A stretch of DNA of 64,000 bases from an uncultured Spirochaetota bacterium (GCA_963820525.1 CAWGAA010000003.1:128001-192000), one strand, 5' to 3'; positions 5,101-45,257 are shown, numbered from the stretch's first letter. Notes: generated by a model not told the origin, from the letters alone. Made by a program: numbers and translations.

Positions 5101-5794
5101 CGGCGCGGCCGGGGAAGAGCTCCTCTCGAAGGTCTTCCCGGCGCTCTGGGCGTGGGCAGTTTTGGAGCCCATCCGCGCTCCAAGGCCGGCGGAGAATGCC
5201 GGGCCTGTCGCGGGCGGCGCAAAGGCCGCACGCGATGCTGGATCAATAGCGGGCGGCGCGAAGGCCGCGGGCGAAGGCCGGCCTGAGGCCGCCGGTTGCC
5301 CCGCTGTTTCCTGGCTGGATGAATGGATGCTGGGAGCCGTGATCCGGGACTGCTGCTCAGCCGCGGCCTGGGACGGGGAAACCGCGTCTCGGGCACAGGC
5401 CCTCGTCTCGGTGCTCCTCGAAAGCGGCGGTCGGCGGCCAACCGCATCGGAGCTCAAGAGGCTTTCGGCGCGGCAGGAAACCGAAGGTTTCCTGCGCGTC
5501 CACTCGTCCGAAGGGACGCGGTGGTTCCACAAGGAATCCCTGGACCTGCTCCTGGGCGGGCTTTCCGCTTGCGGCCTGGCAGCCGGCGCTGCGGCGGGAA
5601 CGACAAGCCCGGCCGAAGCTCTGAAGAAGGACCGCGCTTTCATCGCCTCGTGCCTCACCAAGGCCGAGGAGTCGGGCTACAAGTGGGACGCCTTCCTCCA
5701 ATCGCTCGTTGAAAGGCCGAAAAAGACGCTCCCGTCCGCAGGGACCGCGCGCGGGAAGCCGGCCTCCGGCGGGCGCGCAAGAAAGAAGGCCTGA
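2136..5794 (+). CDS. Large alpha-amylase family (GH13) protein, split by a frameshift at the G6 run 3763-3768
   Basis: DMVPNHTG, IRFDAAM, LLLAEAFW and NPDE motifs are spread over ORFs 2136..3971 and 3599..5794. One extra G restores WFPEPGRGGDIPSRAE. ATGA overlap with malQ. Confidence 0.85.
5210..5268 (+). repeat. Intragenic tandem duplication with 39-bp period (AGGAKAA x2)
   Basis: gcgggcggcgcaaaggccgc at 5210 and gcgggcggcgcgaaggccgc at 5249. Confidence 0.7.
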
Positions 5795-5840
5795 CGCCGG
5801 GAACACAGAGAGGACTCTGGGCGCGCCGGAAAACTAACAT

Positions 5841-6496
5841 TCACGAGCCTGCCCTTCCGATGAAGCCAATATCCTTCAACCACGTCTCACAGAGCTTCGT
5901 CCACGCGCTCAGAGTGGGATTCTCCCGGGCGAGCGCGGTTCCATGCGGGCCATCCAAAAATACATGGAGATCGAACGGCACACCATGGCGGGACAGCGCT
6001 TCAGCGAATATGAGGCTGTGGGTGACAGGGACGATCGGATCGTTTGCAGTGTGATAGATGAATGTCGGCGGAGTGTCCGCGGCCACATGCTCTTCATCTG
6101 AGAACTCACGCAGGAACTCCTCAGGCAGCTTCTGGCTTCGCGACCACCATTTGAACGTGATCCACGGATAGCACAGCACGTGCCGGGTCGATGTCGAATC
6201 GAGCGGCATTGAAGCGGATGAAACGCACGGCCCGCCGCGCGTTCGAGCAGCGAGATGTCCGGAGTATAGGGATGCACGCGATAGCTCAATAGGAAAGCCG
6301 AAATCCCCATTCCGGAAAGCCAAAGCGCGATCGGTTCTGATTCGTGGGCTACTCTCTCCGTGTAGTTTCCCCCCGGGCACACGATCATGGCTGAAGTCGT
6401 GCGACGGCTCTTGACGGGATATGGCGTGATTCCCGGGGGATCATCGGGGAAATCGGCGCGATACTTCGGGATAGTATCTTCCCAGAGTCGAATCAT
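5841..6496 (-). pseudogene. alpha/beta hydrolase (carbohydrate esterase-like) with frameshift and internal deletion
   Basis: N-part IVCPGG, LSYRV, RAVRFIR..FDIDP and C-part LCYP, TPPTFIYHTAND..V...HS, GPHG are present. The GxSxG nucleophile segment between them is missing at about 6180. Confidence 0.75.
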
Positions 6497-32427: not shown

Positions 32428-33276
32428 TCAGAAGTCGAGCTTGTAGGATGCGTTCAAACTGAAAGTCTGCAGCGCGCCGCCGCCTGTGAAGTTTGCGATG
32501 TTGAGCGTCACGTCCAGAACCGACTTCTCGGTGAGAATAAACCCGAAGCCGGCTGCCGCCCCAGGAGAGAACTGTGTGACAGTGGAAGCCGATCCCGTGA
32601 GCCCCGCCGCGACGATGTTTGTCGTCGTGATCCAGTTGACGCCGGCAGAGATTCCCCCCCGAAGCACAACCCACGGGGCCAGCTTGAACTCTCCGCCCAG
32701 CACGGGGCGCAGCATCAGCCAGCCGACGGAGTCCGCGGGGCGGGAGCCGGCGCCGGGCGCTTCCGCTGCCCACGATCCGTTGCCATACACAATCGTAACG
32801 AGCCCGTCGAAAAACACGGTATCCGCGGGCTTCCAATTCAGGCCCACTCCGCCACCGAATGACAGATAGCCCGCCGGATCGATGCGCGTTGTCGTGTTGT
32901 CCAGGTTCGCCCCGGCAAGCGTTGCCGAGGATGAGAGGATCGTCGTGGTGCTGTCCGCAGTCCCGTTTATGTTTGAAATCAGGTTGGCCGCCTGATTGTA
33001 GGAAAACCCGACCCCGCCTCCGACCAGCAGCGTACCCAGCTTCAGCGCGATCAGGATGTCCGCCAGGTTCGTGGGGGCGTTAGGAGCGGTCACGCTCGGC
33101 AGCGCCGCGTTCGCCGCATAGCTTGCGCCGAGCCCCGTAAGGTTTCCCCTCGGCGCTCCGATCACCCATCCGTTCTCATCCGGCCTGTGAAGGAAAAGCC
33201 CCATCACGAAGGACTGGTTCGCGGCGCCGAGAACCACGCCGGCGTTACCGTTGGGGTTTCCCGTCCAATAGCTCAC
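32428..33276 (-). CDS. Outer-membrane beta-barrel-like protein, probably 5'-truncated
   Basis: Gly/aromatic amphipathic strands and terminal Phe (ASYKLDF). No signal peptide; the GTG overlaps the xylB stop. Confidence 0.55.
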   Translation of the reverse strand: MSYWTGNPNGNAGVVLGAANQSFVMGLFLHRPDENGWVIGAPRGNLTGLGASYAANAALPSVTAPNAPTNLADILIALKLGTLLVGGGVGFSYNQAANLISNINGTADSTTTILSSSATLAGANLDNTTTRIDPAGYLSFGGGVGLNWKPADTVFFDGLVTIVYGNGSWAAEAPGAGSRPADSVGWLMLRPVLGGEFKLAPWVVLRGGISAGVNWITTTNIVAAGLTGSASTVTQFSPGAAAGFGFILTEKSVLDVTLNIANFTGGGALQTFSLNASYKLDF

Positions 33277-34817
33277 GGCTTCGCCAGAAGCTTTCCCAGC
33301 GCCTCTTCCCAGGCGCCGTACGCATCACGGTAGGCGGATTGCAGCTCGGGGCGCGGCTCAACGGCACGCACGGCGGCGAGGCCCTCGAACGCCGAGCGGG
33401 CATCGCGATAGATTCCCGCGCCCAGCCCGGCTCCGCGCGCCGCCCCCTGGGAGCCGTCGGTGCTGTAGAGCTCAACGCGGGCACCGGTAGCGCACGCAAA
33501 TGCCTCGGTGAACAGGTCGCTCAGGAACATGTTGGCATAGCCCGCGCGCACCGTGCGCGCCTCCATGCCCATCCCGCCCATGATGCGAAGCCCATAGCGC
33601 AGCGCGAAGACAATCCCCTCCTGGGCGGCCCGCAGGACGTGCCCGATATCGTGGCGATTGAAATCGAGGCTCAAGACCGCGGAGCCGATGTTGAGGTTAT
33701 CCAGTGTGCGCTCCGCCCCATTGCCGAAGGGGAGGATTAAAAGCCCCCCGGAGCCCACCGGCGCTTTGCCCGCCAGAGCGTTGAGCTGCTCGTAGCTCAC
33801 CCGGTTCGACTGCCCCATGAGGTTCCGCCTGATCCAGCTGTACAGAATCCCCGTCCCGTTGAGGCAGAGGAGAATCCCATAACGCGGTTTCTGCTGGCTG
33901 TGGCTGACGTGGAGGAAGGTGTTGACCCGGGACTGGGGGTCGGAGCGCGCGCTTTCCGACACCCCGTAGACCACGCCCGAGGTTCCGGCGGTGGCTGCCG
34001 CCTCCCCGGGGTCGAGCACCTTGAGGGAGAAGGCATTGTTGGGCTGATCGCCGGCGCGATACGCGACGGAAACGCCGGGAAGGAGCCCCAGCTCCGAGGC
34101 GGCCTCTGCGGTGACGGACCCCTGGAGAGAGAAGGTGGGTACGACATCCGCAAGGAGACTGCGCGGTATGCCGTAGTAATCGATCACGATGTCTGAAAGA
34201 CCTCCCTGGCTGAAATCCCAGAGGATCCCCTCGGAGAGCCCGCTGGCCGTGGTCCTGACCTCTCCCGTCATTCGCATCGCCACGTAGTCTCCCGGGAGCA
34301 TTGCCTTATGGGCTCGCTTGAAGATATCGGGCTCGTTCTGCTTGACCCAGGCTATCTTGGAAGCCGTGAAGTTCCCCGGGGAGTTGAGCAGATGCGAGAG
34401 GCAGACCTCTCGGCCTATCTCGCGAAACGCCTCCTCCCCGATATCAACCGCGCGGCTGTCGCACCAGATGATCGCCGGCCGCAATACCGCGCGAGCCTTA
34501 TCCACGAGCACCAGGCCGTGCATCTGGTAGGAGATCCCGATGGCGGCCACCTCTCGGCCGAGGCCGGCCGCCGACGCTCTGCGCGCGGCCGGGGAAGCCT
34601 CGGCTTTTTGAAGCATCTTGCGCGTGGCGAGGACCACGTGGCGCCACCATTGCTCGGGATCCTGCTCGGCCCAACCCGGCCTCGGCGCTGAGATCGGCAT
34701 CTCCTGGTCTGGAGAAGACGCCGAGGCGACGGCCGTGCCGCTTTCGGCGTCGAGGAGCGTTGCCTTGATGGAAGAGCTTCCCACGTCGTAACCCAGGAGA
34801 AAGCGCTTTGCAGCCAT
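33273..34817 (-). CDS. xylB: Xylulokinase (FGGY family)
   Basis: LGYDVGSSSIK, WAEQDP, ISYQMHG, AIIWCDSR, PGNFTASK, GDQ, GTSG. Confidence 0.88.
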   Translation of the reverse strand: MAAKRFLLGYDVGSSSIKATLLDAESGTAVASASSPDQEMPISAPRPGWAEQDPEQWWRHVVLATRKMLQKAEASPAARRASAAGLGREVAAIGISYQMHGLVLVDKARAVLRPAIIWCDSRAVDIGEEAFREIGREVCLSHLLNSPGNFTASKIAWVKQNEPDIFKRAHKAMLPGDYVAMRMTGEVRTTASGLSEGILWDFSQGGLSDIVIDYYGIPRSLLADVVPTFSLQGSVTAEAASELGLLPGVSVAYRAGDQPNNAFSLKVLDPGEAAATAGTSGVVYGVSESARSDPQSRVNTFLHVSHSQQKPRYGILLCLNGTGILYSWIRRNLMGQSNRVSYEQLNALAGKAPVGSGGLLILPFGNGAERTLDNLNIGSAVLSLDFNRHDIGHVLRAAQEGIVFALRYGLRIMGGMGMEARTVRAGYANMFLSDLFTEAFACATGARVELYSTDGSQGAARGAGLGAGIYRDARSAFEGLAAVRAVEPRPELQSAYRDAYGAWEEALGKLLAKP

Positions 34818-35036: not shown

Positions 35037-35297
35037 ATGGCAGGCGACATCGTGAACGAGTTCAAGGTCAGGGGTGAGGAGTTGCTCAAGAAGATCAGGG
35101 ACCTGATCCACGAGGGAAATGTCAGAAAGATCATCATCAAGGACGACAAGGGGAACACGTACCTCGAGTTTCCCTTGACCTTCGGAGTGGTCGGCGCCGT
35201 GCTGGCCCCCGTATGGGCCGCCATCGGGGCCCTTGCAGCGATGGCGTCGAATTTCACCGTGGAAGTTGTAAAAAAGGACGAAGAGCAGAAAACCTAA
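35037..35297 (+). CDS. DUF4342-type small protein
   Basis: EFKVRGEELLKKIRDLIHEGNVRKIIIK..LEFPLTFGVVG; GGAGG RBS. Confidence 0.85.
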   Translation: MAGDIVNEFKVRGEELLKKIRDLIHEGNVRKIIIKDDKGNTYLEFPLTFGVVGAVLAPVWAAIGALAAMASNFTVEVVKKDEEQKT

Positions 35298-35318
35298 GAG
35301 GATTTTGCCCGATACGCT

Positions 35319-35513
35319 TCAGCGCCGGCCGCCTCCCAGAACGCGCGCCGGCAGCATGAGTATGGCCCGCACGAGGTCGAACACGGCATCCAGCGTGAAC
35401 CCGACAATCCGAAAGGGCAGCAGCACCAGCCACAGGATCGGATAGAGGATGAGCACGACCAGGGCCAGGGGCCAGCAGATCACAAGAAGTATGAACCAGA
35501 GAAGAATTCTCAT
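35319..35513 (-). CDS. Small hydrophobic membrane protein
   Basis: MRILLWFILLVICWPLALVVLILYP..LLPFRIVG; GGAGG RBS. Confidence 0.75.
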   Translation of the reverse strand: MRILLWFILLVICWPLALVVLILYPILWLVLLPFRIVGFTLDAVFDLVRAILMLPARVLGGGRR

Positions 35514-35600
35514 GGAATTGCCTCCATCAGGGAAAAGGTTCCCAACCAGCCCTGCTGGGATACCCCCGGCGGGGATACCATAGTAGGGCTGCAATATCGA

Positions 35601-35682
35601 TGTCAAGTTGCATTGTTTTTATGCTTGACAATTCCAGGCATGTATGCTACTTAATTAGTGTATTAGTTAATTAGGACACTAA
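35601..35682. promoter_or_regulatory. Back-to-back -35 boxes plus a 28-bp palindromic operator (YtrA/GntR-like)
   Basis: TGTCAA at 35601 and TTGACA at 35625; TTAGTGTATTAGTTAATTAGGACACTAA at 35655-35682 directly before the AAGGAGG RBS. Confidence 0.7.
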
Positions 35683-35696
35683 GAAGGAGGAAAATC

Positions 35697-35972
35697 ATGT
35701 CCGACAGTAATGAGAAGTTGGATCTGGCACGGAGGATCGCGGTAAGGAAAATGAGCTTCATCAGGCACGCGATCGTCTATCTCATCGTGATGCTCGCCCT
35801 GGTGCTCATCAACAACCTGACGTGGAGCGGCTACCAGTGGTGGCTCTGGCCGGCGATCCTGTGGGGAATCGGCGTCAGCGCCCACTTCGTCTCCGCCTAC
35901 CTCCCGCGGGAGGGGAGCCTGGTGGACCAGCTGACCAAGAGGGAAATGGAGAAGATGGATGAAAAGAAATAG
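35697..35972 (+). CDS. 2TM-domain protein
   Basis: FIRHAIVYLIV..INNLT..WWLWPAILWGIGVSAH. Confidence 0.88.
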   Translation: MSDSNEKLDLARRIAVRKMSFIRHAIVYLIVMLALVLINNLTWSGYQWWLWPAILWGIGVSAHFVSAYLPREGSLVDQLTKREMEKMDEKK

Positions 35973-36876
35973 TCTCAGCCCCATCGACATCCTGGGAATC
36001 ACCCTCGGAACCATCGTTATCCTGCTCGTCGTGGTCGGGATCATTTTCGTCGCCCGTTTCGGGCCGGTTCGCGGGCCGTGGTTCCCGGGCCGCCACTGGG
36101 CGGAAGAGTTCGGCCATGACTGGTCCGAGGAGTTCTCGGGAGGCGGCGCGCTGCGGGAAGAGAAAGACCAGAGCATTGCAGGAAGCTTCCGGGAAGTCGA
36201 GATCCAGAACGTGGCCGGAGAGATCAGGATATCCGGCGGGTCTGCCGGCGAGGTTCAGGTGCACTCGGTCAAAACCGCTTCATCCGCCCGCGCCATGCAG
36301 GCGGTGCAGGTGGAGATCGAAAAGCAGTCAGAACGCCTCGTGATCCGGGAAAAACGGGAAGACTGGCCCCGGTTCCGCTCGGGATCCATCTCGTACACGG
36401 TAACCCTTCCCCGTGGGGTGAAGTCGGTCGTCGCGCACTCGGTGAGCGGCAGCATCGAGGTTTCCAACATTGAGCCGGGGCTCGATCAGCGGCTGGAAAC
36501 GATCTCGGGGAGCATCAGGACCGACAGGGCGCACAACCTGTGGGCCAACTCGACGAGCGGCCAGATCGACTTCGCCTTCGGGGGGCAGACCCTCGAGGCG
36601 CGCTCCATCTCGGGCTCCGTCCAGGGCGATATCCAGTCCATCGAGAAGGGCGGATCGGTCAACATCAGCACCATATCCGGCGCCGTTTCACTCGACGCTT
36701 TCGCGGGACTGGATGCGGGCCTCAACCTGCGCAGCCTGAGCGGGCATGTGTCGTGCGATTTTCCCGTCACCATCTCTTCGCAGAAGAACAACTCACTGGA
36801 GGGAAAGATCGGGGGCGGAAGCATTCCCATTACGATCAACTCGGTCAGCGGCTCCATCAGAATAGACAAGAGGTAG
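35959..36876 (+). CDS. DUF4097-type membrane-anchored beta-strand-repeat protein
   Basis: N-terminal TM helix followed by repeated (S/T)(V/I)SG(S/A/Q)I motifs. Confidence 0.88.
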   Translation: MKRNSLSPIDILGITLGTIVILLVVVGIIFVARFGPVRGPWFPGRHWAEEFGHDWSEEFSGGGALREEKDQSIAGSFREVEIQNVAGEIRISGGSAGEVQVHSVKTASSARAMQAVQVEIEKQSERLVIREKREDWPRFRSGSISYTVTLPRGVKSVVAHSVSGSIEVSNIEPGLDQRLETISGSIRTDRAHNLWANSTSGQIDFAFGGQTLEARSISGSVQGDIQSIEKGGSVNISTISGAVSLDAFAGLDAGLNLRSLSGHVSCDFPVTISSQKNNSLEGKIGGGSIPITINSVSGSIRIDKR

Positions 36877-36897
36877 CGCGAATACTCAATCGAATCG

Positions 36898-36924
36898 AAA
36901 AAGCCCGCTCCGGCGGGCTTTTTT
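36898..36924. terminator. Bidirectional intrinsic terminator
   Basis: AAAAAGCCCGC-tccg-GCGGGCTTTTTT. Confidence 0.9.
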
Positions 36925-37182
36925 ATGTCCTTCGCGTCGTCTCTGCCCGAAAGCGGGGTGCCCCGGCCTTCAGAGCTTCCGTACCGCCTCGTTCCACTGC
37001 CTGAGGGTGCCGGCGAGCACACGGGCGGCCGCAGAATCCGGCTCAAGCGCTCGAGCCCTCGATCGGAATGAGGCCGTATGGCACTGCGATGGAAACCCGG
37101 GTCATTCTCATCAGCGCAAAGGCGACCCCGTCGATGGTTGCGCCGCGCTTGGCCTCGTACTCCGCGGTCCTTCGCCCGCCGA

Positions 37183-37731
37183 TCAGGTGGATCCCCACCT
37201 GATCCGCACTCCAACGACGGGAGTGTAGATCAGCACGTCTTCGAAGGGCATTCCGGGAATCAGATTGCCGAGCACCTGGAAGCCGGCGTAGCCCACAAGC
37301 TGCATCCATCGGGTGACGGGAATGCCCAGCTCGAGGTTCAGCTCTCCAAAAGCGGCCATGAAGCCGGAGGGATTCTCGAAATCGACGGCAAGCCCGCCGA
37401 GCCCGAGCCAGAGATTCACCGCCACGGTGAAAGGGCCGATGCGAAGCTCCTGCCCCGTGATCAACCCCCCGATGCCTCCCGAGATATCGGGCTGGCCCGC
37501 CGTGGAGCCGATGCCGGTGAAGGCCATGCCGAATCCACCGATCCTCTGGCCGTCCGCGGAGACCCCGTAGCCGAAGCCGCCCACGGAGAAAGCGCTGAGA
37601 TCCCTGTTGGCGAAATCTGGATCGTAGTACTGCGAGCCGAAGGTGATACCGCCCCCGCCGTGGGCAAAGAGGGGACAGGCGGCGAGGGCAATCAAAAGGG
37701 AGATGACCGAAATGACGCGAAGCCTTCTCAT
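37183..37731 (-). CDS. Small exported Gly-rich outer-membrane beta-barrel-like protein
   Basis: Signal peptide MRRLRVISVISLLIALAACPLFA and amphipathic Gly/aromatic strands; directly downstream of the caspase gene (alternative ATG at 37746). Confidence 0.75.
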   Translation of the reverse strand: MRRLRVISVISLLIALAACPLFAHGGGGITFGSQYYDPDFANRDLSAFSVGGFGYGVSADGQRIGGFGMAFTGIGSTAGQPDISGGIGGLITGQELRIGPFTVAVNLWLGLGGLAVDFENPSGFMAAFGELNLELGIPVTRWMQLVGYAGFQVLGNLIPGMPFEDVLIYTPVVGVRIRWGST

Positions 37732-37754
37732 GTCAGATTCCTCCATGATGCGTT

Positions 37755-40052
37755 CTACAGCTGCGCTCCGATAAACAGACGCGGAGCGAAACGAGCTGCC
37801 TCCGTGCGCGTCCCGTCGGGCTCTGATGATATGTACGGCAAATACATGTCAACAACCGCCCCCGCAGTCACGGCCATACCGAACACGGGCAGCCCGAGGG
37901 TGGCTTTGAACTGCGGCAGCATGTTCCCCGCCTCGGTCACGTACCAGTCGGCGCCGCCGACGTGCACGGACTGCAGGGTGAGATCGAGGTCGAGGAAAAA
38001 GGGCGAGAGAGGAATATGCCCCCCGAACCCCACGCCGTATGACCAGCGCACGGGGTCGCTTCCCTGCTCGTAGCCCGCCGTGAGCAGGGTATGGGTATAG
38101 CGGGAGCCGAGCTTGAGGGCCGCGTGCCAGCTGGAACCCGTGTCCCACCACATCTCCAGCTCCTGCCTCCCGGCAAGCTCGAAGGTGAGAAGGCCGAACG
38201 GGATCCCGTCGATCACCCGGGCGAAGTTGAAAAGCCCCACCTGGGTGCCCTTCACGGTCCCCGCGATGTTCACAAGCCCCACCTGGGCTCCGTTGACCGT
38301 GTCGGCCACGTTGACCACGCTTATCTGCGGGCCGGCCACTTCCGGAGCGTAGTTGCCCACGCCGGAGATCTGGGCGCCCCTGAAGCGGTCCTGCGACCAG
38401 TTGAACACGCCGGCGATCTGGGCGCCGCTGGATTCCCCGAAGGTCACATTGGCAAGCCCGGAAACGGCGACTCCCTTCTGGCCTCCCGCGGCGATGCACG
38501 AGATTCCAGCGGCCTGGAATCCGGAGGCGAAACCGCCGGTATAGTTGACAATCCCGGCCATCTGGAAGCCCGACGTATCCTCGAGGTTCAGGTTGACGAT
38601 CCCCGCGCTCTGGAAGCCGGAGAAGCTTCCCATGTCGAAGTTGACGATCCCGGCCATCTGCATGAAGCGGCTGTCACGGCCGGCGAAATTCCCGATCCCG
38701 GCCAGCTGCATGCCCCGGACCTTTCCGAGAACGAGGTTTGCAAGCCCGGCCGCCTGGTAGCCGCTCATGGTCTCGGATTCGATATTGGCCAGAACCCCCG
38801 CCTCGAATCCGCTCATGTTGGCGGAGGTTCCCACCAGCATGTTGATGACCACGTTGCGATCCGTTTGGGAAGAGAAAAGCCCATCCTTCAAGTCGGGAAA
38901 GAAGGAGAAGGTGAACTCCTCGACGCGCCGCGGCTTTTCCGTGATGTCGGACGCCGGAGGCTCGTCCTCGGCGTCGCCGCGCGGGATGGTCCTGTCCGCG
39001 GAGAAAGTCCACAGATCCGTGGAGGAGAGGACGCTGCGCTTGTTCGCCGAGATCTTCACCTCGGCGCGATAGCGCGTGTCCTTGGCGTCGAGCACGACGG
39101 CGTAGGCGCCGGGCTCCAGCCCGAGCTCCACCTTCTGACCCTCGGGCTTGTTCAGCTCCACCGCCAGCACGCCCCGGGCGTCCCGGATGTAGAGCCGGCC
39201 CGACACGTCCTCCGCCACGATGAGCCCGGCGGACGCGGCCCGAAGGTCCGTGAGCACGAGGTCTCCCGAGCCGGTGAGGTTGATATCGTAGGCGGGGTGC
39301 TGGGGTCCGTACTGGGTCTTCTCCGTGGAGGCGAGGGTCTCCTGGAAAGCGAAGGCATATGCTTCGTTCAGGGTCACCAGGCCGTCACCGTTGGCATCCG
39401 CGGCGCCGCGAAGACCGGAGACGAGGTAGTGGGTGAAGAACGACGCCCCGATCTTGTCGGATTCCTGCGCCGACTCCTCCGCGGAGCTTGAGGTGAGAAA
39501 CGCGTGGCCCTTCATGTCGGTGGAAGCGTCGAAGAGGAACGCGGGCCGCCAGGTCCCACCCTTGGTCCGGGTGAGGGCTCCCGAGGCGCAGGAATCGAGC
39601 ACCGCCACGCGAACGTCCGAGGGGACGTCCACGATCTGTTTTCGAAGCTCGTCGTAGGGGAAGCTTTCCGTTCCGAGGATCAGCCCCTCGTCGTCGGAGT
39701 GGCCGGAGTAATAGATGAGAAGCTCCCGCCGCTCTCCGCCTTCCCGCTCGCTTTCCATCATCGCCTGGACGCGCCGCAGGCCGTCCTGGAACTCGGACAA
39801 GCGGGGGTCGATGAGCAGGAGCATGTCGCCGTCCTTTACTCCCCCGAGCTCCTTGAGCACGGTGGCGAAGCTCCTGGCGTCCGAGGTGGCGTATTTCAGC
39901 TTCATCCGCGTCGGGCCTCCATTGTTGGAGCCCGCCACCAGGGCGAAACGGCGAAGGGGTACGACGCCGGAGCCCGCTCCATCCGCCGTCAGGGGGATGG
40001 CTCCGACCAGAGCGAAAATGAGAGCCAGACCGAAAAATGACCTTCTATCCAT
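37755..40052 (-). CDS. Exported caspase-family (C14, metacaspase/orthocaspase-like) protease with LA_2272-like repeats and a C-terminal beta-barrel-like region
   Basis: Signal peptide; RFALVAGSN, YYSGH118, VLDSC155, AQES..FTHYLVSGLRGAAD.NGDG.VTLNEAY; 14-16-aa G.Q.AG..N repeats; terminal strands ending FIGAQL. Confidence 0.9.
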   Translation of the reverse strand: MDRRSFFGLALIFALVGAIPLTADGAGSGVVPLRRFALVAGSNNGGPTRMKLKYATSDARSFATVLKELGGVKDGDMLLLIDPRLSEFQDGLRRVQAMMESEREGGERRELLIYYSGHSDDEGLILGTESFPYDELRKQIVDVPSDVRVAVLDSCASGALTRTKGGTWRPAFLFDASTDMKGHAFLTSSSAEESAQESDKIGASFFTHYLVSGLRGAADANGDGLVTLNEAYAFAFQETLASTEKTQYGPQHPAYDINLTGSGDLVLTDLRAASAGLIVAEDVSGRLYIRDARGVLAVELNKPEGQKVELGLEPGAYAVVLDAKDTRYRAEVKISANKRSVLSSTDLWTFSADRTIPRGDAEDEPPASDITEKPRRVEEFTFSFFPDLKDGLFSSQTDRNVVINMLVGTSANMSGFEAGVLANIESETMSGYQAAGLANLVLGKVRGMQLAGIGNFAGRDSRFMQMAGIVNFDMGSFSGFQSAGIVNLNLEDTSGFQMAGIVNYTGGFASGFQAAGISCIAAGGQKGVAVSGLANVTFGESSGAQIAGVFNWSQDRFRGAQISGVGNYAPEVAGPQISVVNVADTVNGAQVGLVNIAGTVKGTQVGLFNFARVIDGIPFGLLTFELAGRQELEMWWDTGSSWHAALKLGSRYTHTLLTAGYEQGSDPVRWSYGVGFGGHIPLSPFFLDLDLTLQSVHVGGADWYVTEAGNMLPQFKATLGLPVFGMAVTAGAVVDMYLPYISSEPDGTRTEAARFAPRLFIGAQL
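38200..38816 (-). repeat. About 13 tandem 14-16-aa beta-helix-type repeats (48/42-bp period)
   Basis: SGYQAAGLAN, RGMQLAGIGN, SGFQSAGIVN, SGFQMAGIVN, GAQIAGVFN, GAQVGLVN, GTQVGLFN. Confidence 0.9.
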
Positions 40053-40058
40053 TGAAGT

Positions 40059-40865
40059 TTATCCTTGTTTCCTGAGCGTCATCGAGAACATGCTCACCCC
40101 GGAGGGAAGCCGCAGGCTTTCCGTATCCGCCGTTCGCGGCTTTGAGGTGAGGGCGCGCGCCGCCAGGGCGATCTTCTGCACGTCGAAGGGAGAGCGGGCG
40201 TACACGAAAAAGAACCTTTCGAACCCCGGAGCGTCATCAAGCTCGTAGGCGAAAGGGAGCACCGCCTGCCCCTGCCTTTCGAGCTCGGGGGAGTTGAGCG
40301 ACTGCCCCTTGTAGTTTCCAGGCAGGTGGTAGGTAAGGACGCCGCGGCCGTCCACGGAAAAGATCACGCCATAGCGCGCTTCCCCGCCCACGTAGCCGAT
40401 CTGAAGGACGTCCTTGGGGTGGACCGCCGAACCGTCCACCAGCTCCTCCGCCCTTCCCGAAGTCTTCTTGAATATGGTGAGATGCGGATTACCGCCCTTC
40501 ACCCTCGTCACCTCCGCTCCCGCTGCCCGCGCAAGGAAAGGCAGCATTGCGTCGCGCAATGTGAAAAACGAGATCAGCACGAGGGCCGCCGCTGCCGCCG
40601 GCAGGATGTAGGGCAGATACGAGCGCCTCCTCGGCTCACGGGCCCGCCCTTCCCCGAGCCTCTCCCGGATGCCGGGGGCCACCCGCTGGGGCGGGTACAT
40701 TGAAAGAATCTCCTGGTTGGACCGCTCGATCTCGGAGAGCCTCGCGCGGAGCTTCTCGTCCGCCTGCAGGGCTTCCCGGACTCTTTGGCTCTCCGCGGCG
40801 GGAAGCTCCCCCAGGACATACTGCTCCAGATGGAGATCCGATACCGTCCATGACTCGCGCCTCAT
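40059..40865 (-). CDS. Putative anti-sigma factor: cytoplasmic helical domain, one TM helix, periplasmic DUF4384/ActD-like domain
   Basis: LEQYVLGEL..L..I anti-sigma-like N-terminus without Cys, TM at about residues 83-103, TRVKGG, FSVDGRG, YELDDAPGFERFF. ATGA-coupled to the ECF gene. Confidence 0.75.
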   Translation of the reverse strand: MRRESWTVSDLHLEQYVLGELPAAESQRVREALQADEKLRARLSEIERSNQEILSMYPPQRVAPGIRERLGEGRAREPRRRSYLPYILPAAAAALVLISFFTLRDAMLPFLARAAGAEVTRVKGGNPHLTIFKKTSGRAEELVDGSAVHPKDVLQIGYVGGEARYGVIFSVDGRGVLTYHLPGNYKGQSLNSPELERQGQAVLPFAYELDDAPGFERFFFVYARSPFDVQKIALAARALTSKPRTADTESLRLPSGVSMFSMTLRKQG

Positions 40866-41347
40866 GACTGGGCCTCCTCGAGCGCCCGCGTGCGCGTCTT
40901 GAGCGCCGCCAAACGCTTTCTTACCCCGGAGACCGAGAGCCCCACGTGGGAGGCCACCTCCTCCAGGGTCATCTTGTCCACATAATGCAACACCGCCATG
41001 GTGCGCGTGGACGACTGCTCGCGCCGAAAAATCCGCTCGAGGAAATGCCGTGTCACCGCCATTTCCTCTACGTCCTCCGCGGACGCGACAGTAAGGAGGA
41101 TTTCGTCACCGGAGATCTTCGGGTGCCGCCGGTCCGAGCGCAGCATGTTCAGGCAGACATTGGTGGCGATGCAGTACAAAAGGCTCGATGGAGCCCGATC
41201 GTTCAGCCGCTCGCTGTGGCGGAGCACGCGGACGAACGTGTCCTGCATCGCATCCAGGGCCCGCTCCTCGTCGCCGAGGAGCCGTCTGCACCTGCGCAAG
41301 ACCATGGGACCGTACTTATTGTAGAGAGCTTCTACGTTCAGCGCCAA
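40862..41347 (-). CDS. ECF RNA polymerase sigma factor
   Basis: Region 2 LYNKYGPMVLRRC..DAMQDTF..LYCIATNVCLN; region 4 MTLEEVASHVGLSVSGVRKRL. Start is TTG 41347 or ATG 41368. Confidence 0.93.
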   Translation of the reverse strand: MALNVEALYNKYGPMVLRRCRRLLGDEERALDAMQDTFVRVLRHSERLNDRAPSSLLYCIATNVCLNMLRSDRRHPKISGDEILLTVASAEDVEEMAVTRHFLERIFRREQSSTRTMAVLHYVDKMTLEEVASHVGLSVSGVRKRLAALKTRTRALEEAQS

Positions 41348-41491
41348 GGGGATCCCCCAATCCTCCATTGACTATAACACGAAAGAGGGTGAAAAATGGT
41401 ACCGGACAATTCGGCGCGCACGCAGTGACACTTGGCGGCGGACCCCGTGTTCCATTGGTGTCTGAACCACGGACACAATGGAGGTTTACCA

Positions 41492-42067
41492 ATGAGAGTT
41501 GCGATCCTTTTCCTTGTCTTCTTCTGCGCCCTGATTCCCGCATGCTTTGCGGCCCCGACGTTCACTTTCACCGCGGACGCGGCCACTGATTTCTCTTCCC
41601 TTCCCTCGGCCGAGCAGGCCTTCAGCGGCATCGCCGACAACTTCCAGCCCCTCTGGGGATTCGGCTGGGAGATCGTGATGCGCCGCATCGGCTTCGGCGG
41701 AACGTATATGGTGGATTTCTTCCGCGACGACACCTCGCGCTGGGCCATGGACTGGTACGGGGAAGGGCTCTTCGTGAGCTACCACATCTTCGGCGGCGGG
41801 GCCTTCCTGGATCCCTTCATCCAGGCCGGAGCGGGATGCGCCGGGAGAGTGCTCCTCCACTCCACCGGCGCTCTCCAGCGGAGCCCCGACATATCGATCT
41901 TTCCGTTCCTCGCAGCCGGTCTCTCCCTGAACCTCGAGGGATTCCTCCTCGGGGCGAAGCTCAGCTACGTTCCCTTCCAGTCCGAGATACCCGTCACGGA
42001 TATCCCCGGCTATCCCGTGGAAAACTTCAAGATCACGATCTTCTCCGGCATCTCCCTGGGCCGCTGA
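41492..42067 (+). CDS. Small exported outer-membrane beta-barrel-like protein, divergent from the ECF gene
   Basis: GGAGG RBS, signal peptide, amphipathic strands (WGFGWEI, FLDPFIQAGAG, LLGAKLSY). Confidence 0.75.
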   Translation: MRVAILFLVFFCALIPACFAAPTFTFTADAATDFSSLPSAEQAFSGIADNFQPLWGFGWEIVMRRIGFGGTYMVDFFRDDTSRWAMDWYGEGLFVSYHIFGGGAFLDPFIQAGAGCAGRVLLHSTGALQRSPDISIFPFLAAGLSLNLEGFLLGAKLSYVPFQSEIPVTDIPGYPVENFKITIFSGISLGR

Positions 42068-42116
42068 GGCCTCCCGCCCTTTCCCGCGCTTCGGCATCCA
42101 TGCTACCATTGGGTGG

Positions 42117-43367
42117 ATGCCGAGGCATTTTGTCGGGTTCGGTTTCGGGCCCATCCAGATCGGACTCATGCTCACCGAGGCCGCGGAATCGGGAAACTTC
42201 GAAAGCTTCACGATCTCGGAGATCGACAGTGGCCTGGTGAGCGCGATCCGCGGAAACGGCGGCTCGCTCGCTGTCAACATTGCCGCACAGAGCGGGATCC
42301 GCAAGCGGGTCCTCTCCGGGGTCTCGATATTCAATCCCAACGTCGCGGAGGACAGGGCCGAAATCGGCCGCGCAATCCGCGAAGCCGACGAGCTTGCCAC
42401 CGCGGTGCCCAGCGTGAGCGCGTATGCCGCCGGCGGGCCGGCATCAATCGCCGCGCTCCTGGCGGCGAACATTACCCCTGACAAGCCGCGGATCCTCTAC
42501 GCCGCGGAGAACAACAACTTCGCCGCGGAGATCCTGCGCGCCGAGATAGTGAAAGTCGCTTCACCGGGCGCGCTTTCGCGCCTTCAGATCCTCGACACGG
42601 TGATCGGCAAGATGAGCGGCGTGATTTCCTCCCGCCAGGAGATGCGTTCCCTGGGGCTGGAGCCTTTAGCGCCCGGGCTGGACAGGTGCGTCCTGGTGGA
42701 AGAGTTCAACAGGATCCTCATCTCCCGCGTCACGCTGCCCGGCTTCCAGAGGGGCATCCGCGTGTTCGAGGAGAAAGACGACCTTCTGCCGTTCGAAGAG
42801 GCCAAGCTCTTCGGCCACAATGCCATCCACGCCCTCCTGGGATACCTTGCATGGACCCGGGGATACACCGTCATGAGCGAGATCCGCGGGGACGCCGGGC
42901 TTCTGGCGCTGGCAAGAAAGGCATTCCTGGAGGAATCGGGCGGCGCCCTCATCAGAAAGCACGACAAATCGGGGGATCCCCTCTTCACGCCGAAGGGCTA
43001 CAGGGAGTATGCCGAAGACCTCCTCGCGCGCATGACGAACCCCTACCTCCATGACAGGGTGGAGCGCATCATCCGCGACCCCGAGCGGAAGCTGGGCTAC
43101 TCGGACCGGCTCATCGGAACGATGCGAGAGACCTTGAAACAGGGCGTTGAGCCCAGGATCATGGCCGCGGGGGCTGCGGCGGCGGTACTGTTCGCGATGA
43201 ACGCGCGCGATGAATCCCGCAGGGCGAAACCGCACCCGGCGAAGCCCCCAGAATCAGCCGTCGAGGACTTCCTCCTTGACCTTTGGCGGAAGGAGCCCTC
43301 CGACGAGCATCGCCGGAGGTGCATCTCCATGGTGCAGCAGGCAATGCGGGACCTCGCGCTTCCCTGA
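42117..43367 (+). CDS. Mannitol-1-phosphate-dehydrogenase-like polyol dehydrogenase
   Basis: FGFGPIQIG, TAV, AAEN, K..GHN..HA, NPYLHDRVERIIRDPERKLGYSDRL. Confidence 0.75.
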   Translation: MPRHFVGFGFGPIQIGLMLTEAAESGNFESFTISEIDSGLVSAIRGNGGSLAVNIAAQSGIRKRVLSGVSIFNPNVAEDRAEIGRAIREADELATAVPSVSAYAAGGPASIAALLAANITPDKPRILYAAENNNFAAEILRAEIVKVASPGALSRLQILDTVIGKMSGVISSRQEMRSLGLEPLAPGLDRCVLVEEFNRILISRVTLPGFQRGIRVFEEKDDLLPFEEAKLFGHNAIHALLGYLAWTRGYTVMSEIRGDAGLLALARKAFLEESGGALIRKHDKSGDPLFTPKGYREYAEDLLARMTNPYLHDRVERIIRDPERKLGYSDRLIGTMRETLKQGVEPRIMAAGAAAAVLFAMNARDESRRAKPHPAKPPESAVEDFLLDLWRKEPSDEHRRRCISMVQQAMRDLALP

Positions 43368-43484
43368 GGGGACGCGCCGGGCCCCGGATCCGGGCATCGG
43401 TGCGCCTTGACGGGCCGCAGAGCTTTCTCTACCATCCCCTGTGGCCGGGCGCCGAGAGACCGCCCCTGGCCCGGGAGAAAACCC

Positions 43485-45257
43485 ATGGCGATCCGCAAAA
43501 CCAAGATTGTCTGCACCCTCGGCCCCGCCACGGAGAGCGTCCGCGTGCTGAAACAGCTCCTCCATGCGGGGATGAACGTCGCGCGTTTCAACATGGCCCA
43601 CGGCGACCACGACTACCACGCCGCGATGATGGCGCGCCTGCGCGAAGCGAGCAAGGCCACCGGCATCCCCGTGGCCCTCCTCATCGACATCAAGGGGCCC
43701 GAGATCCGCACGGGCGTCGTGGAGGCGGACGCGACGATCCAGCTTTCCACGGGAGACGCCGTCACCGTGACGGTGGACGACGAGCCCTGCACCGCCGGCC
43801 GCATCAGCATCACCTACAAGGATCTGCCGGACCAGATCTCGGCGGGCAAGCACATCCTGATCGCGGACGGGCTGATCGACCTCGAGGTGATCGGCGTGGA
43901 AGGCCGCGTGACGCGCTGCGTCGTGCGCTCGGGAGGGACCCTCGGCTCGCGCAAGAACGTGAACATCATCGGGATCAAGAGCAGGCTGCCCGCCGTCACG
44001 GAGAAGGACGTGGCGAACGTCGCCTTCGGCGTGAGCCAGGACATGGATTTCGTCGCCGCCTCCTTCGTTCGAAAGCCCGAGGATGTCCTGGAGATCCGCC
44101 AGCTCCTCCTGGCGAAGGGATCCCGGATGCAGATCGTCTCCAAGATCGAGGACGGGGAAGGCCTGGCCAACATCGACGACATCATTCGGGTGTCGGACGG
44201 CATCATGATCGCGCGGGGAGACCTCGGAGTTCAGCTCCCCACGGAGGAGATTCCCCTGGCGCAGAAGAGGATCATCCTGAAGTGCCACGAACAGAACAAG
44301 ACCGTGATCACGGCCACGCAGATGCTCGACTCGATGATCGTCAACCCCAAGCCCACCCGGGCGGAAGCCACCGACGTGGCCAACGCCATCTTCGACGGCT
44401 CGGACGCCGTGATGCTCTCCGGAGAGACGGCGAGCGGAAAGTTCCCCGTGCTGGCCGTCCAGACAATGGACCGCATCGCCCGGGCTTCCGAAGACTCTCC
44501 GGAGTACGAGTCGCGGGTTCGGCGATTCTTCCGTCTGGAGGAGAAGGAGGAAGACACGGCCCAGGCCGTTGCCCGGGCGGCCTACATGGTGGCGCGCGAG
44601 ATCGGGGCCGCGGCCATCCTGGCGCCCACGATCCACGGCACCACCCCGAAGCTGATCAGCAAGTACCGCCCCGCGGCCATCGTCCTCGCGGTCACGCCCT
44701 CCGAGGCCGTTCAGCGCAAGCTCCTCCTCTACTGGGGAGTGGTCCCCCTCATCGCAGATATCGGGGAGAACACGGACGAGATGCTGAACAATGCGCTCCA
44801 GGCGGCGCTCGACAAGGGGCTTGTGAAGAACGCGCAGAGGGTCGTGATCCTCGCCGGAGTGCCCGTCCGCTCGCCGGCGATGCTCAACATGATCCGCGTC
44901 CACTTCATCGGAAACGTGCTGAACAAGGGCAAGCGCGGCTTCGGGGGATATCGAGCCGGCAGGGTGGTGAAGGTGATCGACGCGCTGGACGCCGAGCTCC
45001 GCCTCAAGCACGACGGGACCGAGATCCTCCTGGTCAAGTTCCTCACCCCCGATTTCCTGCCGCTCCTGAAGGGCGTGGCGGGAATAATCATCGAGCAGTC
45101 CTCCTACTTAAGCGAAGAGCAGATCAAGTCGGTGGAGCCCGCGGTCGTCGCCATCGCGGAGGTTCCCGAGGCGGTGCAGAGCCTCGAGGACGGCATCACC
45201 GTCACCCTCCACGGCGACGAGTTTGTCATCTACGAGGGAGTGCTCACCAGCAGCTAG
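43485..45257 (+). CDS. pyk: Pyruvate kinase with C-terminal swivel-like extension
   Basis: KTKIVCTLGP, ARFN..HG, DIKGPEIRTG, SKIE, GIMIARGDLG, ATQMLDSM..PTRAE, MLSGETA. Confidence 0.97.
   Translation: MAIRKTKIVCTLGPATESVRVLKQLLHAGMNVARFNMAHGDHDYHAAMMARLREASKATGIPVALLIDIKGPEIRTGVVEADATIQLSTGDAVTVTVDDEPCTAGRISITYKDLPDQISAGKHILIADGLIDLEVIGVEGRVTRCVVRSGGTLGSRKNVNIIGIKSRLPAVTEKDVANVAFGVSQDMDFVAASFVRKPEDVLEIRQLLLAKGSRMQIVSKIEDGEGLANIDDIIRVSDGIMIARGDLGVQLPTEEIPLAQKRIILKCHEQNKTVITATQMLDSMIVNPKPTRAEATDVANAIFDGSDAVMLSGETASGKFPVLAVQTMDRIARASEDSPEYESRVRRFFRLEEKEEDTAQAVARAAYMVAREIGAAAILAPTIHGTTPKLISKYRPAAIVLAVTPSEAVQRKLLLYWGVVPLIADIGENTDEMLNNALQAALDKGLVKNAQRVVILAGVPVRSPAMLNMIRVHFIGNVLNKGKRGFGGYRAGRVVKVIDALDAELRLKHDGTEILLVKFLTPDFLPLLKGVAGIIIEQSSYLSEEQIKSVEPAVVAIAEVPEAVQSLEDGITVTLHGDEFVIYEGVLTSS

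Follow-up and report, generated by a model that had tools for sequence, protein, structure and literature searches.

A widespread gene trio for an ECF sigma factor, a putative anti-sigma factor and a predicted outer-membrane-anchored caspase-family protease

The gene trio and its distribution

A stretch of 64,000 nucleotides from an uncultured Spirochaetota bacterium (GCA_963820525.1 CAWGAA010000003.1:128001-192000), referred to here as the window, was analyzed between positions 37183 and 42067, where five open reading frames (ORFs) are called, four on the minus strand and one divergent. As called, the minus-strand ORFs encode a sigma factor of the extracytoplasmic function (ECF) type with 168 amino acids (aa; 40862-41368), a putative single-pass anti-sigma factor of 268 aa (40059-40865), a caspase protein of 765 aa that appears to carry its own outer-membrane anchor (37755-40052) and a small secreted envelope protein of 187 aa, here omp187 (37183-37746). 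The divergent ORF, here omp211, has 211 aa (41432-42067, plus strand). An earlier note, made from the sequence of the window, had described the four minus-strand genes as tightly coupled, and the spacings it gave were recovered. The sigma and anti-sigma genes share an ATGA overlap, the caspase ATG starts 6 bases past the anti-sigma stop, and 8 bases separate the caspase stop from the 187-aa ORF, or 23 if the second ATG of that ORF, which lies behind a GGAGGA, is the true start. In both the sigma gene and the 187-aa ORF, GGAGGA comes right after the first ATG, so the true starts of these two genes are probably slightly downstream.

The first three genes of this set recur together. Of the 41 genomes examined from the taxonomic order to which the window belongs, 35 (its own among them) have a match to the caspase protein, and the module appears to be vertically stable within the order. 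From the loci of the 34 relatives we took the 20 that combined strong matches with room on the contig, and in all 20 the sigma, anti-sigma and caspase genes have identical order and strand, with the sigma gene cut by the contig end in one of them (L017). In another (L018, G034:C11, about 5550-6330), two reading frames each hold part of the anti-sigma gene, and a long open frame continues into the caspase gene. A fused anti-sigma-caspase ORF was considered for this locus and rejected, because the anti-sigma halves lie in different frames, which points to a frameshifted gene, a pseudogene or a fault of the assembly.

Conservation across genomes, on which the earlier note had let its proposal depend, extends well beyond the order. 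When the anti-sigma alignment was run against one genome per species, it returned at least 600 stretches, at least 563 of them confirmed relatives. The best 80 were kept, and their neighbors were searched with profiles built from the 20 relatives. Among these best 80 loci, the sigma gene lies upstream in 78 and the caspase gene downstream in 79, and in the three remaining cases (L086, L098 and L095) the contig breaks off there. When start codons are chosen by script, an overlap of 4 bases is the most frequent spacing at each of the two junctions. Most of the 80 loci are labelled Spirochaetota, and the others include Myxococcota (among them a cultured Corallococcus), Aminicenantes/Acidobacteria, Latescibacterota, Fibrobacteraceae and one "Proteobacteria". 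Several are metagenome-assembled genomes that bear the label Eubacteriales or Clostridia, which is doubtful where a protein has an outer-membrane barrel. In a profile search of 1.84 billion representative proteins, one per cluster at 50% identity, 7,358 members of the anti-sigma family were found at E<=0.001, with 4,394 of them at E<=1e-10 and 2,265 at E<=1e-30, and the best 150 were all full-length, at about 250-330 aa. The arrangement of the trio is far beyond chance, and the locus appears to be a member of a widespread, uncharacterized three-gene envelope signaling module.

Architecture of the caspase protein and the anti-sigma factor

The AlphaFold model of the caspase protein, built on 69 sequences, has a mean predicted local distance difference test score (pLDDT) of 90.7, with low-confidence stretches at residues 20-29, 164-176 and 357-371, the latter two below 50. 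Its N-terminus forms a hydrophobic helix, followed by the low-confidence residues 20-29, and is predicted to be a Sec-type signal peptide of about 25 residues (39978-40052, minus strand, as are all features of this protein). The orthologues have ordinary signal peptides. The first residues of the window protein, M-D-R-R-S-F-F (40030-40052), look twin-arginine-like, and export by the twin-arginine (Tat) pathway through DRRSFF was rejected because just 7 of 79 orthologues have an RR pair among their first 15 residues.

Residues 31-273 (39234-39962) form a catalytic domain of the caspase/metacaspase fold. It matches Peptidase_C14 (PF00656) over residues 34-228 with 33.6 bits, above the cut-off of 21.4, and aligns with the metacaspase AtMC4 (6w8r_A) at Z 20.9, with a root-mean-square deviation (rmsd) of 2.9 over 207 aligned residues; the best Foldseek matches of the protein are fungal metacaspases and the caspase-Ig3 part of MALT1. 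The catalytic dyad that the earlier note had read as intact, His118 (39699-39701) and Cys155 (39588-39590), is invariant, each residue being present in 72 of 72 aligned orthologues. Two aspartates of the S1 type are nearly as constant (D58 in 71/72, D153 in 72/72), and in a profile alignment the segment DSCsSG falls on the metacaspase DSCHSG and sDA on the metacaspase NDA/NDV. Since two aspartates of the metacaspase pocket confer specificity for basic residues (PMC6426788), the S1 pocket, by a residue mapping made in this analysis, appears to be of the metacaspase type, which fits cuts after Arg or Lys. Nine residues past Cys155, a disordered loop opens with T161-R162-T-K164-G165 (39558-39572), conserved as T161 in 65/72, R162 in 64/72, K164 in 72/72 and G165 in 71/72 orthologues. 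Caspases and type II metacaspases make their activating cuts in the loop after the catalytic Cys, and this segment is a candidate autoprocessing site.

Behind the catalytic domain, the model places an Ig-like beta-sandwich at residues 274-356 (38985-39233), to which the MALT1 caspase-Ig3 alignment extends, covering about 400 columns in all; the domain is found in every locus whose contig reaches that far. It is followed by T355-I-P-R358-G359 and a disordered linker to residue 375 (38928-38990), which together form a candidate site for release of the protease head from its anchor. R358 is kept in 71/72 and G359 in 72/72 orthologues, with a hypervariable linker behind them. A group of close relatives (loci L034-L047) carries a hydrophobic insert of 60-130 aa, rich in Ala, Gly and Val (AAxGAAVGAAVGK-like), right behind this R-G; the insert is absent from the window protein and could be a membrane-active or amphipathic segment.

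Two further domains make up the predicted anchor. Residues 376-624 (38181-38927) are modeled as a beta-helix with rungs of about 16 residues and repeats of the LA_2272 type (NF047436 LA_2272_repeat, 36.6 bits against a cut-off of 25). Its best structural match is 3p4g_A (Z 20.9), and autotransporter passengers and two-partner secretion (TPS) domains follow at Z 13-18, among them Ag43b, TibA and UpaB at Z 13-15. The C-terminal residues 625-765 (37758-38180) have eight long strands in the model, between 629 and 764, and resemble eight-stranded outer-membrane barrels: the N-domain of OprF (4rlc_A, Z 15.0, rmsd 3.0, 121 aligned), NspA (1p4t_A, Z 13.5), PagL (2erv_B, Z 13.4) and OmpW (Z 12.1). This barrel had no match in Pfam. 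Barrels of the OmpA type with eight strands have both ends in the periplasm and no passenger channel, so the caspase head should face the periplasm, tethered under the outer membrane, and not the cell surface. A type Va autotransporter was rejected because the barrel has 8 strands and autotransporters need 12. The earlier note had proposed an exported caspase accompanied by separate outer-membrane proteins and responding to a surface signal; both elements give way to a single 765-aa protein that, according to the model, carries its own beta-helix and outer-membrane barrel, with the protease on the periplasmic side. The beta-helix is missing in 15 of 69 complete orthologues. The tails of nine orthologues without it are all of an alternating Gly- and aromatic-rich type; four of them end in an aromatic-x-F pattern and three more in FQFGK. 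From these sequences, the membrane anchor seems to be general and the beta-helix spacer optional.

The anti-sigma factor was modeled with a pLDDT of 88.2. Two NCBIfam models of anti-sigma factors match it, at the N-terminus only, with E about 1e-10 and scores below their cut-offs, and residues 10-75 (40641-40838, minus strand, as are all features of this protein) form a predicted cytoplasmic domain of four helices whose fold matches RslA (3hug_B, Z 6.6), RsiW (5wuq_C, Z 6.5) and MucA (8z6g_A, Z 6.3), values that are modest for helical folds. These matches are compatible with the anti-sigma-like helical N-terminus of a membrane protein that the earlier note had proposed. No Cys/His zinc motif was found in the anti-sigma domain in the orthologue alignment. 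A long helix at residues 87-114 (40524-40607), which coincides with a hydrophobic stretch of the alignment, is the predicted transmembrane segment, and from there to residue 127 the model is coil, with residues 115-118 below a pLDDT of 50.

Residues 128-266 (40068-40484) form the predicted periplasmic part, a beta-sandwich with an invariant LDDAPxFERF motif. The earlier label of DUF4384 is only partly appropriate for it. The window protein reaches 13.7 bits (E=0.068) against PF14326, for which the Pfam gathering cut-off is 27 bits, while 28 of 80 anti-sigma orthologues match the family at E<=0.01, the best at 1.9e-5; the domain is, by these scores, DUF4384-like, and we do not file it as a DUF4384 member. 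The sandwich also has structural matches to Ig and macroglobulin domains (Z 7-9), as folds of this kind commonly do, and a search of solved structures by sequence with the anti-sigma profile gave no match at E<=1. That the Ig-like domain of the caspase protein and the anti-sigma sandwich might both be DUF4384 domains was considered and rejected, with an hhalign probability of 0.5%.

Within the coil of the anti-sigma factor, about nine residues past the transmembrane helix, lies T120-R121-V-K123-G124 (40494-40508), the same TRxKG motif that opens the loop behind the catalytic Cys of the caspase. Among the 80 anti-sigma orthologues, T120 is present in 52, R121 in 71, and K123 and G124 in all 80. 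By its conservation and its position in coil, this segment is a candidate site-1 cleavage site, with the cut between K123 and G124. Among the best 150 independent representatives of the family, a juxtamembrane K-G occurs in 150 and xRxKG in 136, as counted with a crude regular expression and with a rough chance estimate of about a third for K-G. All three basic-Gly sites (K123-G124, K164-G165 and R358-G359) lie in or beside low-confidence coil of the models. In one clade (L076, L090, L096 and L105), both proteins have a hydrophobic residue instead of Arg two positions ahead of the Lys, a suggestive paired change that is probably one evolutionary event. A complex prediction for the caspase head (residues 28-372) and anti-sigma residues 108-268, made with alignments, scored 0.00 in two runs, a result that counts neither way on binding. 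For the step after site-1 cleavage, the window's genome (G000) has an RseP-type M50 gene (C1:530871-532169, PF02163 above the cut-off). The family is present in all 14 control genomes, which makes its presence here hardly informative, and an M50 gene of the RseP type is expected in nearly any bacterium.

Promoter motif, small envelope genes and surroundings

The assignment of the sigma gene to the ECF class by the earlier note was upheld by matches to Sigma70_r2 (E=1.2e-16) and to TIGR02937 (63.9 bits, cut-off 42.9), with Sigma70_r4_2 at 22.7 bits against a cut-off of 25.7. The match to the superfamily model, the small size, the coupled anti-sigma gene and a conserved dyad upstream all point to an ECF (group 4) sigma factor. 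Its 168 aa are counted from the ATG; the true start is probably the TTG at codon 8 (41347), because GGAGGA lies directly behind the ATG and the relatives align from residue 8.

The dyad was found by a count of spaced word pairs with no preset pattern: GTGAC ... TGTT occurs in 25 of 71 regions upstream of sigma genes and in at most 7 in shuffles. In its refined form, GT[GA]AC-N17-GTGTT, it is found at 49 loci from several phyla, mostly 54 to 66 bases ahead of the called start. In the window, a relaxed scan gave GTACC-N17-GTGTT, with one mismatch to GT[GA]AC, at 41376-41402 on the minus strand, the predicted autoregulatory ECF-type promoter of the operon. An exact motif, GTGAC-N17-GTGTT, lies at 41425-41451 on the plus strand, 40 bases ahead of the divergent gene. 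A strict genome-wide scan of the window's genome gave 6 hits, not above the 1-8 hits for other spacers, and a crude coding/intergenic control was not clean; since the strict hits are at chance level, we claim no wider regulon, only targets conserved in relatives.

Several other occurrences in the same genome were recorded. The exact motif stands 7-50 bases before ORFs at C1:2859816, C1:2894779, C3:985488, C1:1736717 and C1:2366184, a chance-level number that makes them leads at most. Two of the ORFs behind these hits begin with lipobox-like signal peptides and a third with a plain one. When the spacer is 15 or 23 bases long, the half-sites lie outside ORFs of high third-position GC (GC3) in 7/8 and 7/7 cases, respectively, and may be a repeat or the site of another regulator.

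Two small genes appear to be targets of the sigma factor. The divergent gene most likely starts at 41492, at an ATG seven bases behind GGAGG, and not at 41432, which gives a protein of 191 aa (41492-42067) with a plain signal peptide. Homologues of omp211 were found in 14 of 20 related loci. The promoter motif precedes 18 of 27 such homologues in its strict form and 26 of 27 when one mismatch per half-site is allowed, compared with 4.3% of random 290-base windows, and the motif-bearing homologues include three loci in which the gene lies behind the caspase gene. The accessory gene omp187 probably starts at its second ATG (37731, codon 6); from there, the protein shows a lipobox-like L-A-A-C and may be a lipoprotein. 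It has homologues in 23 of 41 genomes of the order, directly behind the caspase gene in five (G005, G008, G016, G020 and G024) and elsewhere in the rest, and of 15 unlinked homologues, 12 are immediately preceded by the relaxed motif. The window copy lacks a separate motif and is probably transcribed as part of the operon. Because the motif precedes their homologues, omp187 and omp211 look like outputs of the sigma factor rather than parts of a sensor; the earlier note had placed them within the signaling system itself.

Both small ORFs were present as that note described and are at most candidate beta-barrels. Neither has a Pfam family, even at E<=1. Comparisons among omp187, omp211 and the caspase barrel showed no relation (hhalign probabilities <=6.2%, and E=0.015 for omp187 against omp211 in BLASTP), and the leads are feature-based neighbors only, clusters of OMP_b-brl, TP_0126 and DUF2715. 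OMP_b-brl is among those of omp211, which is possibly an outer-membrane barrel.

A scan for sigma-70 promoters and terminators over 36800-42300 gave counts within those of shuffled sequence. The module is flanked by a mannitol-dehydrogenase-like gene, a pyruvate kinase gene and a xylulokinase-like gene (42117-45257, plus strand; 33273-34817, minus strand). These genes hold their position in many genomes of the same family, and the module therefore sits in a stable chromosomal setting. Next to it, on the plus strand at 35037-36876, are a DUF4342 gene (35037-35297), a gene with two transmembrane segments (2TM; 35697-35972) and a DUF4097/LiaG-like "toastrack" gene (35959-36876), which may be another envelope-stress unit; the pair of 2TM and DUF4097 genes lies beside the caspase gene in 7 of 20 related loci. 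No cas genes were seen among the scanned neighbors of the trio, the part of the window to which that scan was confined, and none of the anti-phage models of PADLOC matched the five proteins at E<=0.001.

A proposed protease-gated switch and its relation to known systems

The intact dyad, the metacaspase-type S1 aspartates and the TRxKG motif common to both proteins suggest that the caspase acts on the anti-sigma factor. In the mechanism that we propose, and on which we regard the chances as evenly balanced, the caspase would be the dedicated periplasmic protease of the switch. Held under the outer membrane, it would work in the periplasm and cut after Lys or Arg. It would process itself at TRxK164/G in the loop past the catalytic Cys, and a further self-cut at R358/G359 would probably free the protease head from its anchor. 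The site-1 cut would be made in the anti-sigma factor at TRxK123/G124, which lies some nine residues beyond the inner membrane; the RseP-type site-2 protease of the genome would remove the remaining stub, and with the help of cytoplasmic proteases the sigma factor would become free. The freed sigma factor would transcribe its own operon from GT[GA]AC-N17-GTGTT, along with genes of small envelope proteins such as omp211 and omp187. The trigger would probably be some condition of the outer membrane or periplasm under which the protease gains access to the inner membrane.

Several observations weigh against this mechanism. The K123-G124 pair lies at the edge of the sandwich (fold alignments begin at 124, and the block 121-130 has a mean pLDDT of 80), and its invariance could therefore be structural. 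T120 is kept in just 52 of the 80 anti-sigma factors, and the paired change of the motif is seen in one clade only. The chief difficulty is geometry, since in the models the outer membrane holds the enzyme and the candidate site is no more than about ten residues away from the inner membrane; with the beta-helix spacer lacking in 15 of 69 orthologues, a tether with an optional spacer means that access would need an extra step, such as release, a pre-insertion intermediate or compression of the envelope. A cut at the universal R358/G359 site would solve the geometry by releasing the head, and so would a precursor that is not yet inserted; in either case the module would report the state of the outer membrane. 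The position of the caspase gene in an autoregulated operon makes it an output of the sigma factor as well, which fits rival explanations equally well. Finally, other anti-sigma factors are cut by general proteases of the periplasm, those of the DegS, Prc or CtpA type.

In an extended form of the mechanism, the module would sense outer-membrane biogenesis by reporting on itself, and would be the counterpart of sigmaE/DegS in phyla that rely on other means. Its protease would be a beta-barrel client in its own right, and an inserted barrel would keep the head out of reach of the anti-sigma factor; upon failed insertion, or release at R358/G359, the active caspase would reach the inner membrane and cut at TRxK/G, turning the sigma factor on. 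We consider this extension doubtful.

The caspase might, alternatively, be only an output. The DUF4384-like domain would then sense another cue, general proteases would cut the anti-sigma factor, and the induced caspase would trim or remodel the envelope. Many ECF operons carry their main target gene, and a caspase gene inside an autoregulated operon, remaining predicted targets that are envelope proteins, and a tether that holds the protease far from the anti-sigma site would all be expected on this view. It does not explain, however, why TRxKG stands in both the caspase loop and the juxtamembrane segment of the anti-sigma factor, or why the genes co-occur so strictly and are translationally coupled across phyla, and DUF4384 is reported to be often fused to protease domains (preprint 10.1101/2022.08.17.504292); overall we judge an output-only role unlikely. 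The same common motif, which points to recognition by an active site, also bears on the idea that the caspase head is a shielding partner, which binds the DUF4384-like domain and protects the anti-sigma factor until loss of contact exposes it, with catalysis reserved for other substrates or for the protein itself. The layout, an outer-membrane protein with a periplasmic module facing an inner-membrane anti-sigma factor, does recall TonB-dependent transducers and FecR-type anti-sigma factors, and a Pseudomonas transducer protects its anti-sigma factor from proteolysis (PMC11637429). Here, however, no TonB box or plug-like signaling domain was seen, and a dyad that is invariant beside near-invariant S1 aspartates (D58 in 71/72) indicates that catalysis matters, which makes shielding improbable.

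We also considered a programmed-death or anti-phage module, in which the sigma factor would induce a caspase that damages the cell's own envelope. Caspase-family proteases of bacteria do occur in conflict systems, craspase and DdvA (see below) tie the caspase family, sigma factors and defense together, and the best NCBIfam match of the protein is "caspase, EACC1-associated type" (E=7.7e-18). This match reaches only 64.7 bits against a cut-off of 140, however, and the absence of PADLOC matches for the five proteins, the housekeeping neighbors in family-wide synteny rather than a variable island, and the vertical stability of the module within the order (35/41 genomes) make a role in death or defense very improbable.

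For the bacterial relatives of caspases, hardly any natural substrates are known. If the caspase does cut the anti-sigma factor, the module would be the third, and by far the commonest, link of caspase-family proteases to inhibitors of sigma factors, after craspase and DdvA, and would give diderm bacteria a new route from the outer membrane to transcription. If the sensor extension also holds, a bacterial caspase relative would gain a defined natural substrate and a signaling role outside cell death. The conserved promoter motif can serve as it stands for a reporter and as a way into the regulon.

Among known systems, sigmaE of E. coli is released when DegS makes a periplasmic site-1 cut in the single-pass anti-sigma factor RseA and the M50 protease RseP makes the site-2 cut; the system is autoregulated and serves outer-membrane surveillance. 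The proposed switch would share the order of site-1 and site-2 cleavage, the autoregulated operon and the logic of outer-membrane surveillance, whereas DegS is an inner-membrane-anchored PDZ serine protease encoded elsewhere and the protease proposed here would be a cysteine protease encoded in the operon itself and held in the outer membrane. FecA/FecR/FecI signaling, with Prc and RseP, is likewise a relay of an outer-membrane protein, an inner-membrane anti-sigma factor and an ECF sigma factor that ends in proteolysis. In contrast to it, the module has neither a TonB-dependent receptor nor a FecR domain, and its outer-membrane component would itself be a protease.

The literature searched on ECF factors, anti-sigma factors and caspases, on DUF4384 and on orthocaspases and metacaspases yielded no experimental study of the module. 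Gene context ties ECF54 to CHAT proteins (PMC8999054), and anti-sigma factors of ECF25 may carry DUF4384 (PMC7826278). In the main text and the examined supplement of this latter paper, a re-classification of ECF factors, the word "caspase" is absent, and later group descriptions may bear on the point. The gene association itself is already in print: Asplund-Samuelsson et al. (2012; PMC3501461) describe four metacaspase operons of M. xanthus that have a sigma-70 family gene in common, and similar sigma-70/metacaspase operons in Anaeromyxobacter, Haliangium, Sorangium, Ralstonia and Fibrobacter. The association is identical to the one seen here, but in the accessible text of that paper it is an operon listing, which mentions no anti-sigma factor, outer-membrane anchor, motif, promoter or mechanism.

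A caspase-family protease that cuts an inhibitor of a sigma factor in a flexible linker is known from the type III-E craspase, in which Cas7-11/Csx29 cuts Csx30, which holds RpoE together with Csx31; one group of Csx30 C-terminal domains is DUF4384 (preprint 10.1101/2022.08.17.504292). Craspase is cytoplasmic, RNA-guided and CRISPR-linked and uses a CHAT protease, whereas the protease of the module is predicted to be periplasmic and belongs to C14. The nearest mechanistic precedent is DdvA of M. xanthus (2024), an anti-sigma factor with a periplasmic TPR-CHAT module of the caspase family, for which cleavage in the juxtamembrane linker ahead of RseP has been proposed (PMC11506125), and the idea of a caspase-family protease acting on an anti-sigma factor is thus not wholly new. 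In both DdvS/DdvA and the module, a single-pass anti-sigma factor restrains (here by prediction) its ECF sigma factor, a His-Cys module of the caspase family lies (here again by prediction) in the periplasm, and the proposed cut falls in the flexible segment between the transmembrane helix and the periplasmic domain, before RseP. The two differ in that the DdvA protease is fused to the anti-sigma factor and would act in trans within a dimer, while the window anti-sigma factor, with 268 aa and only a beta-sandwich outside the membrane, lacks a TPR-CHAT domain and the protease is a separate C14 protein with a predicted outer-membrane anchor. DdvA further has a zinc-binding anti-sigma domain, in place of which the anti-sigma factor of the module has no Cys/His motif and ends in a small DUF4384-like sandwich, and the DdvS regulon comprises CBASS and CRISPR genes, whereas the targets predicted here are small envelope proteins. 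What is new here for protease-gated ECF signaling, as far as sequences and models indicate, is a co-encoded metacaspase-type protease anchored in the outer membrane, together with a concrete candidate cleavage site.

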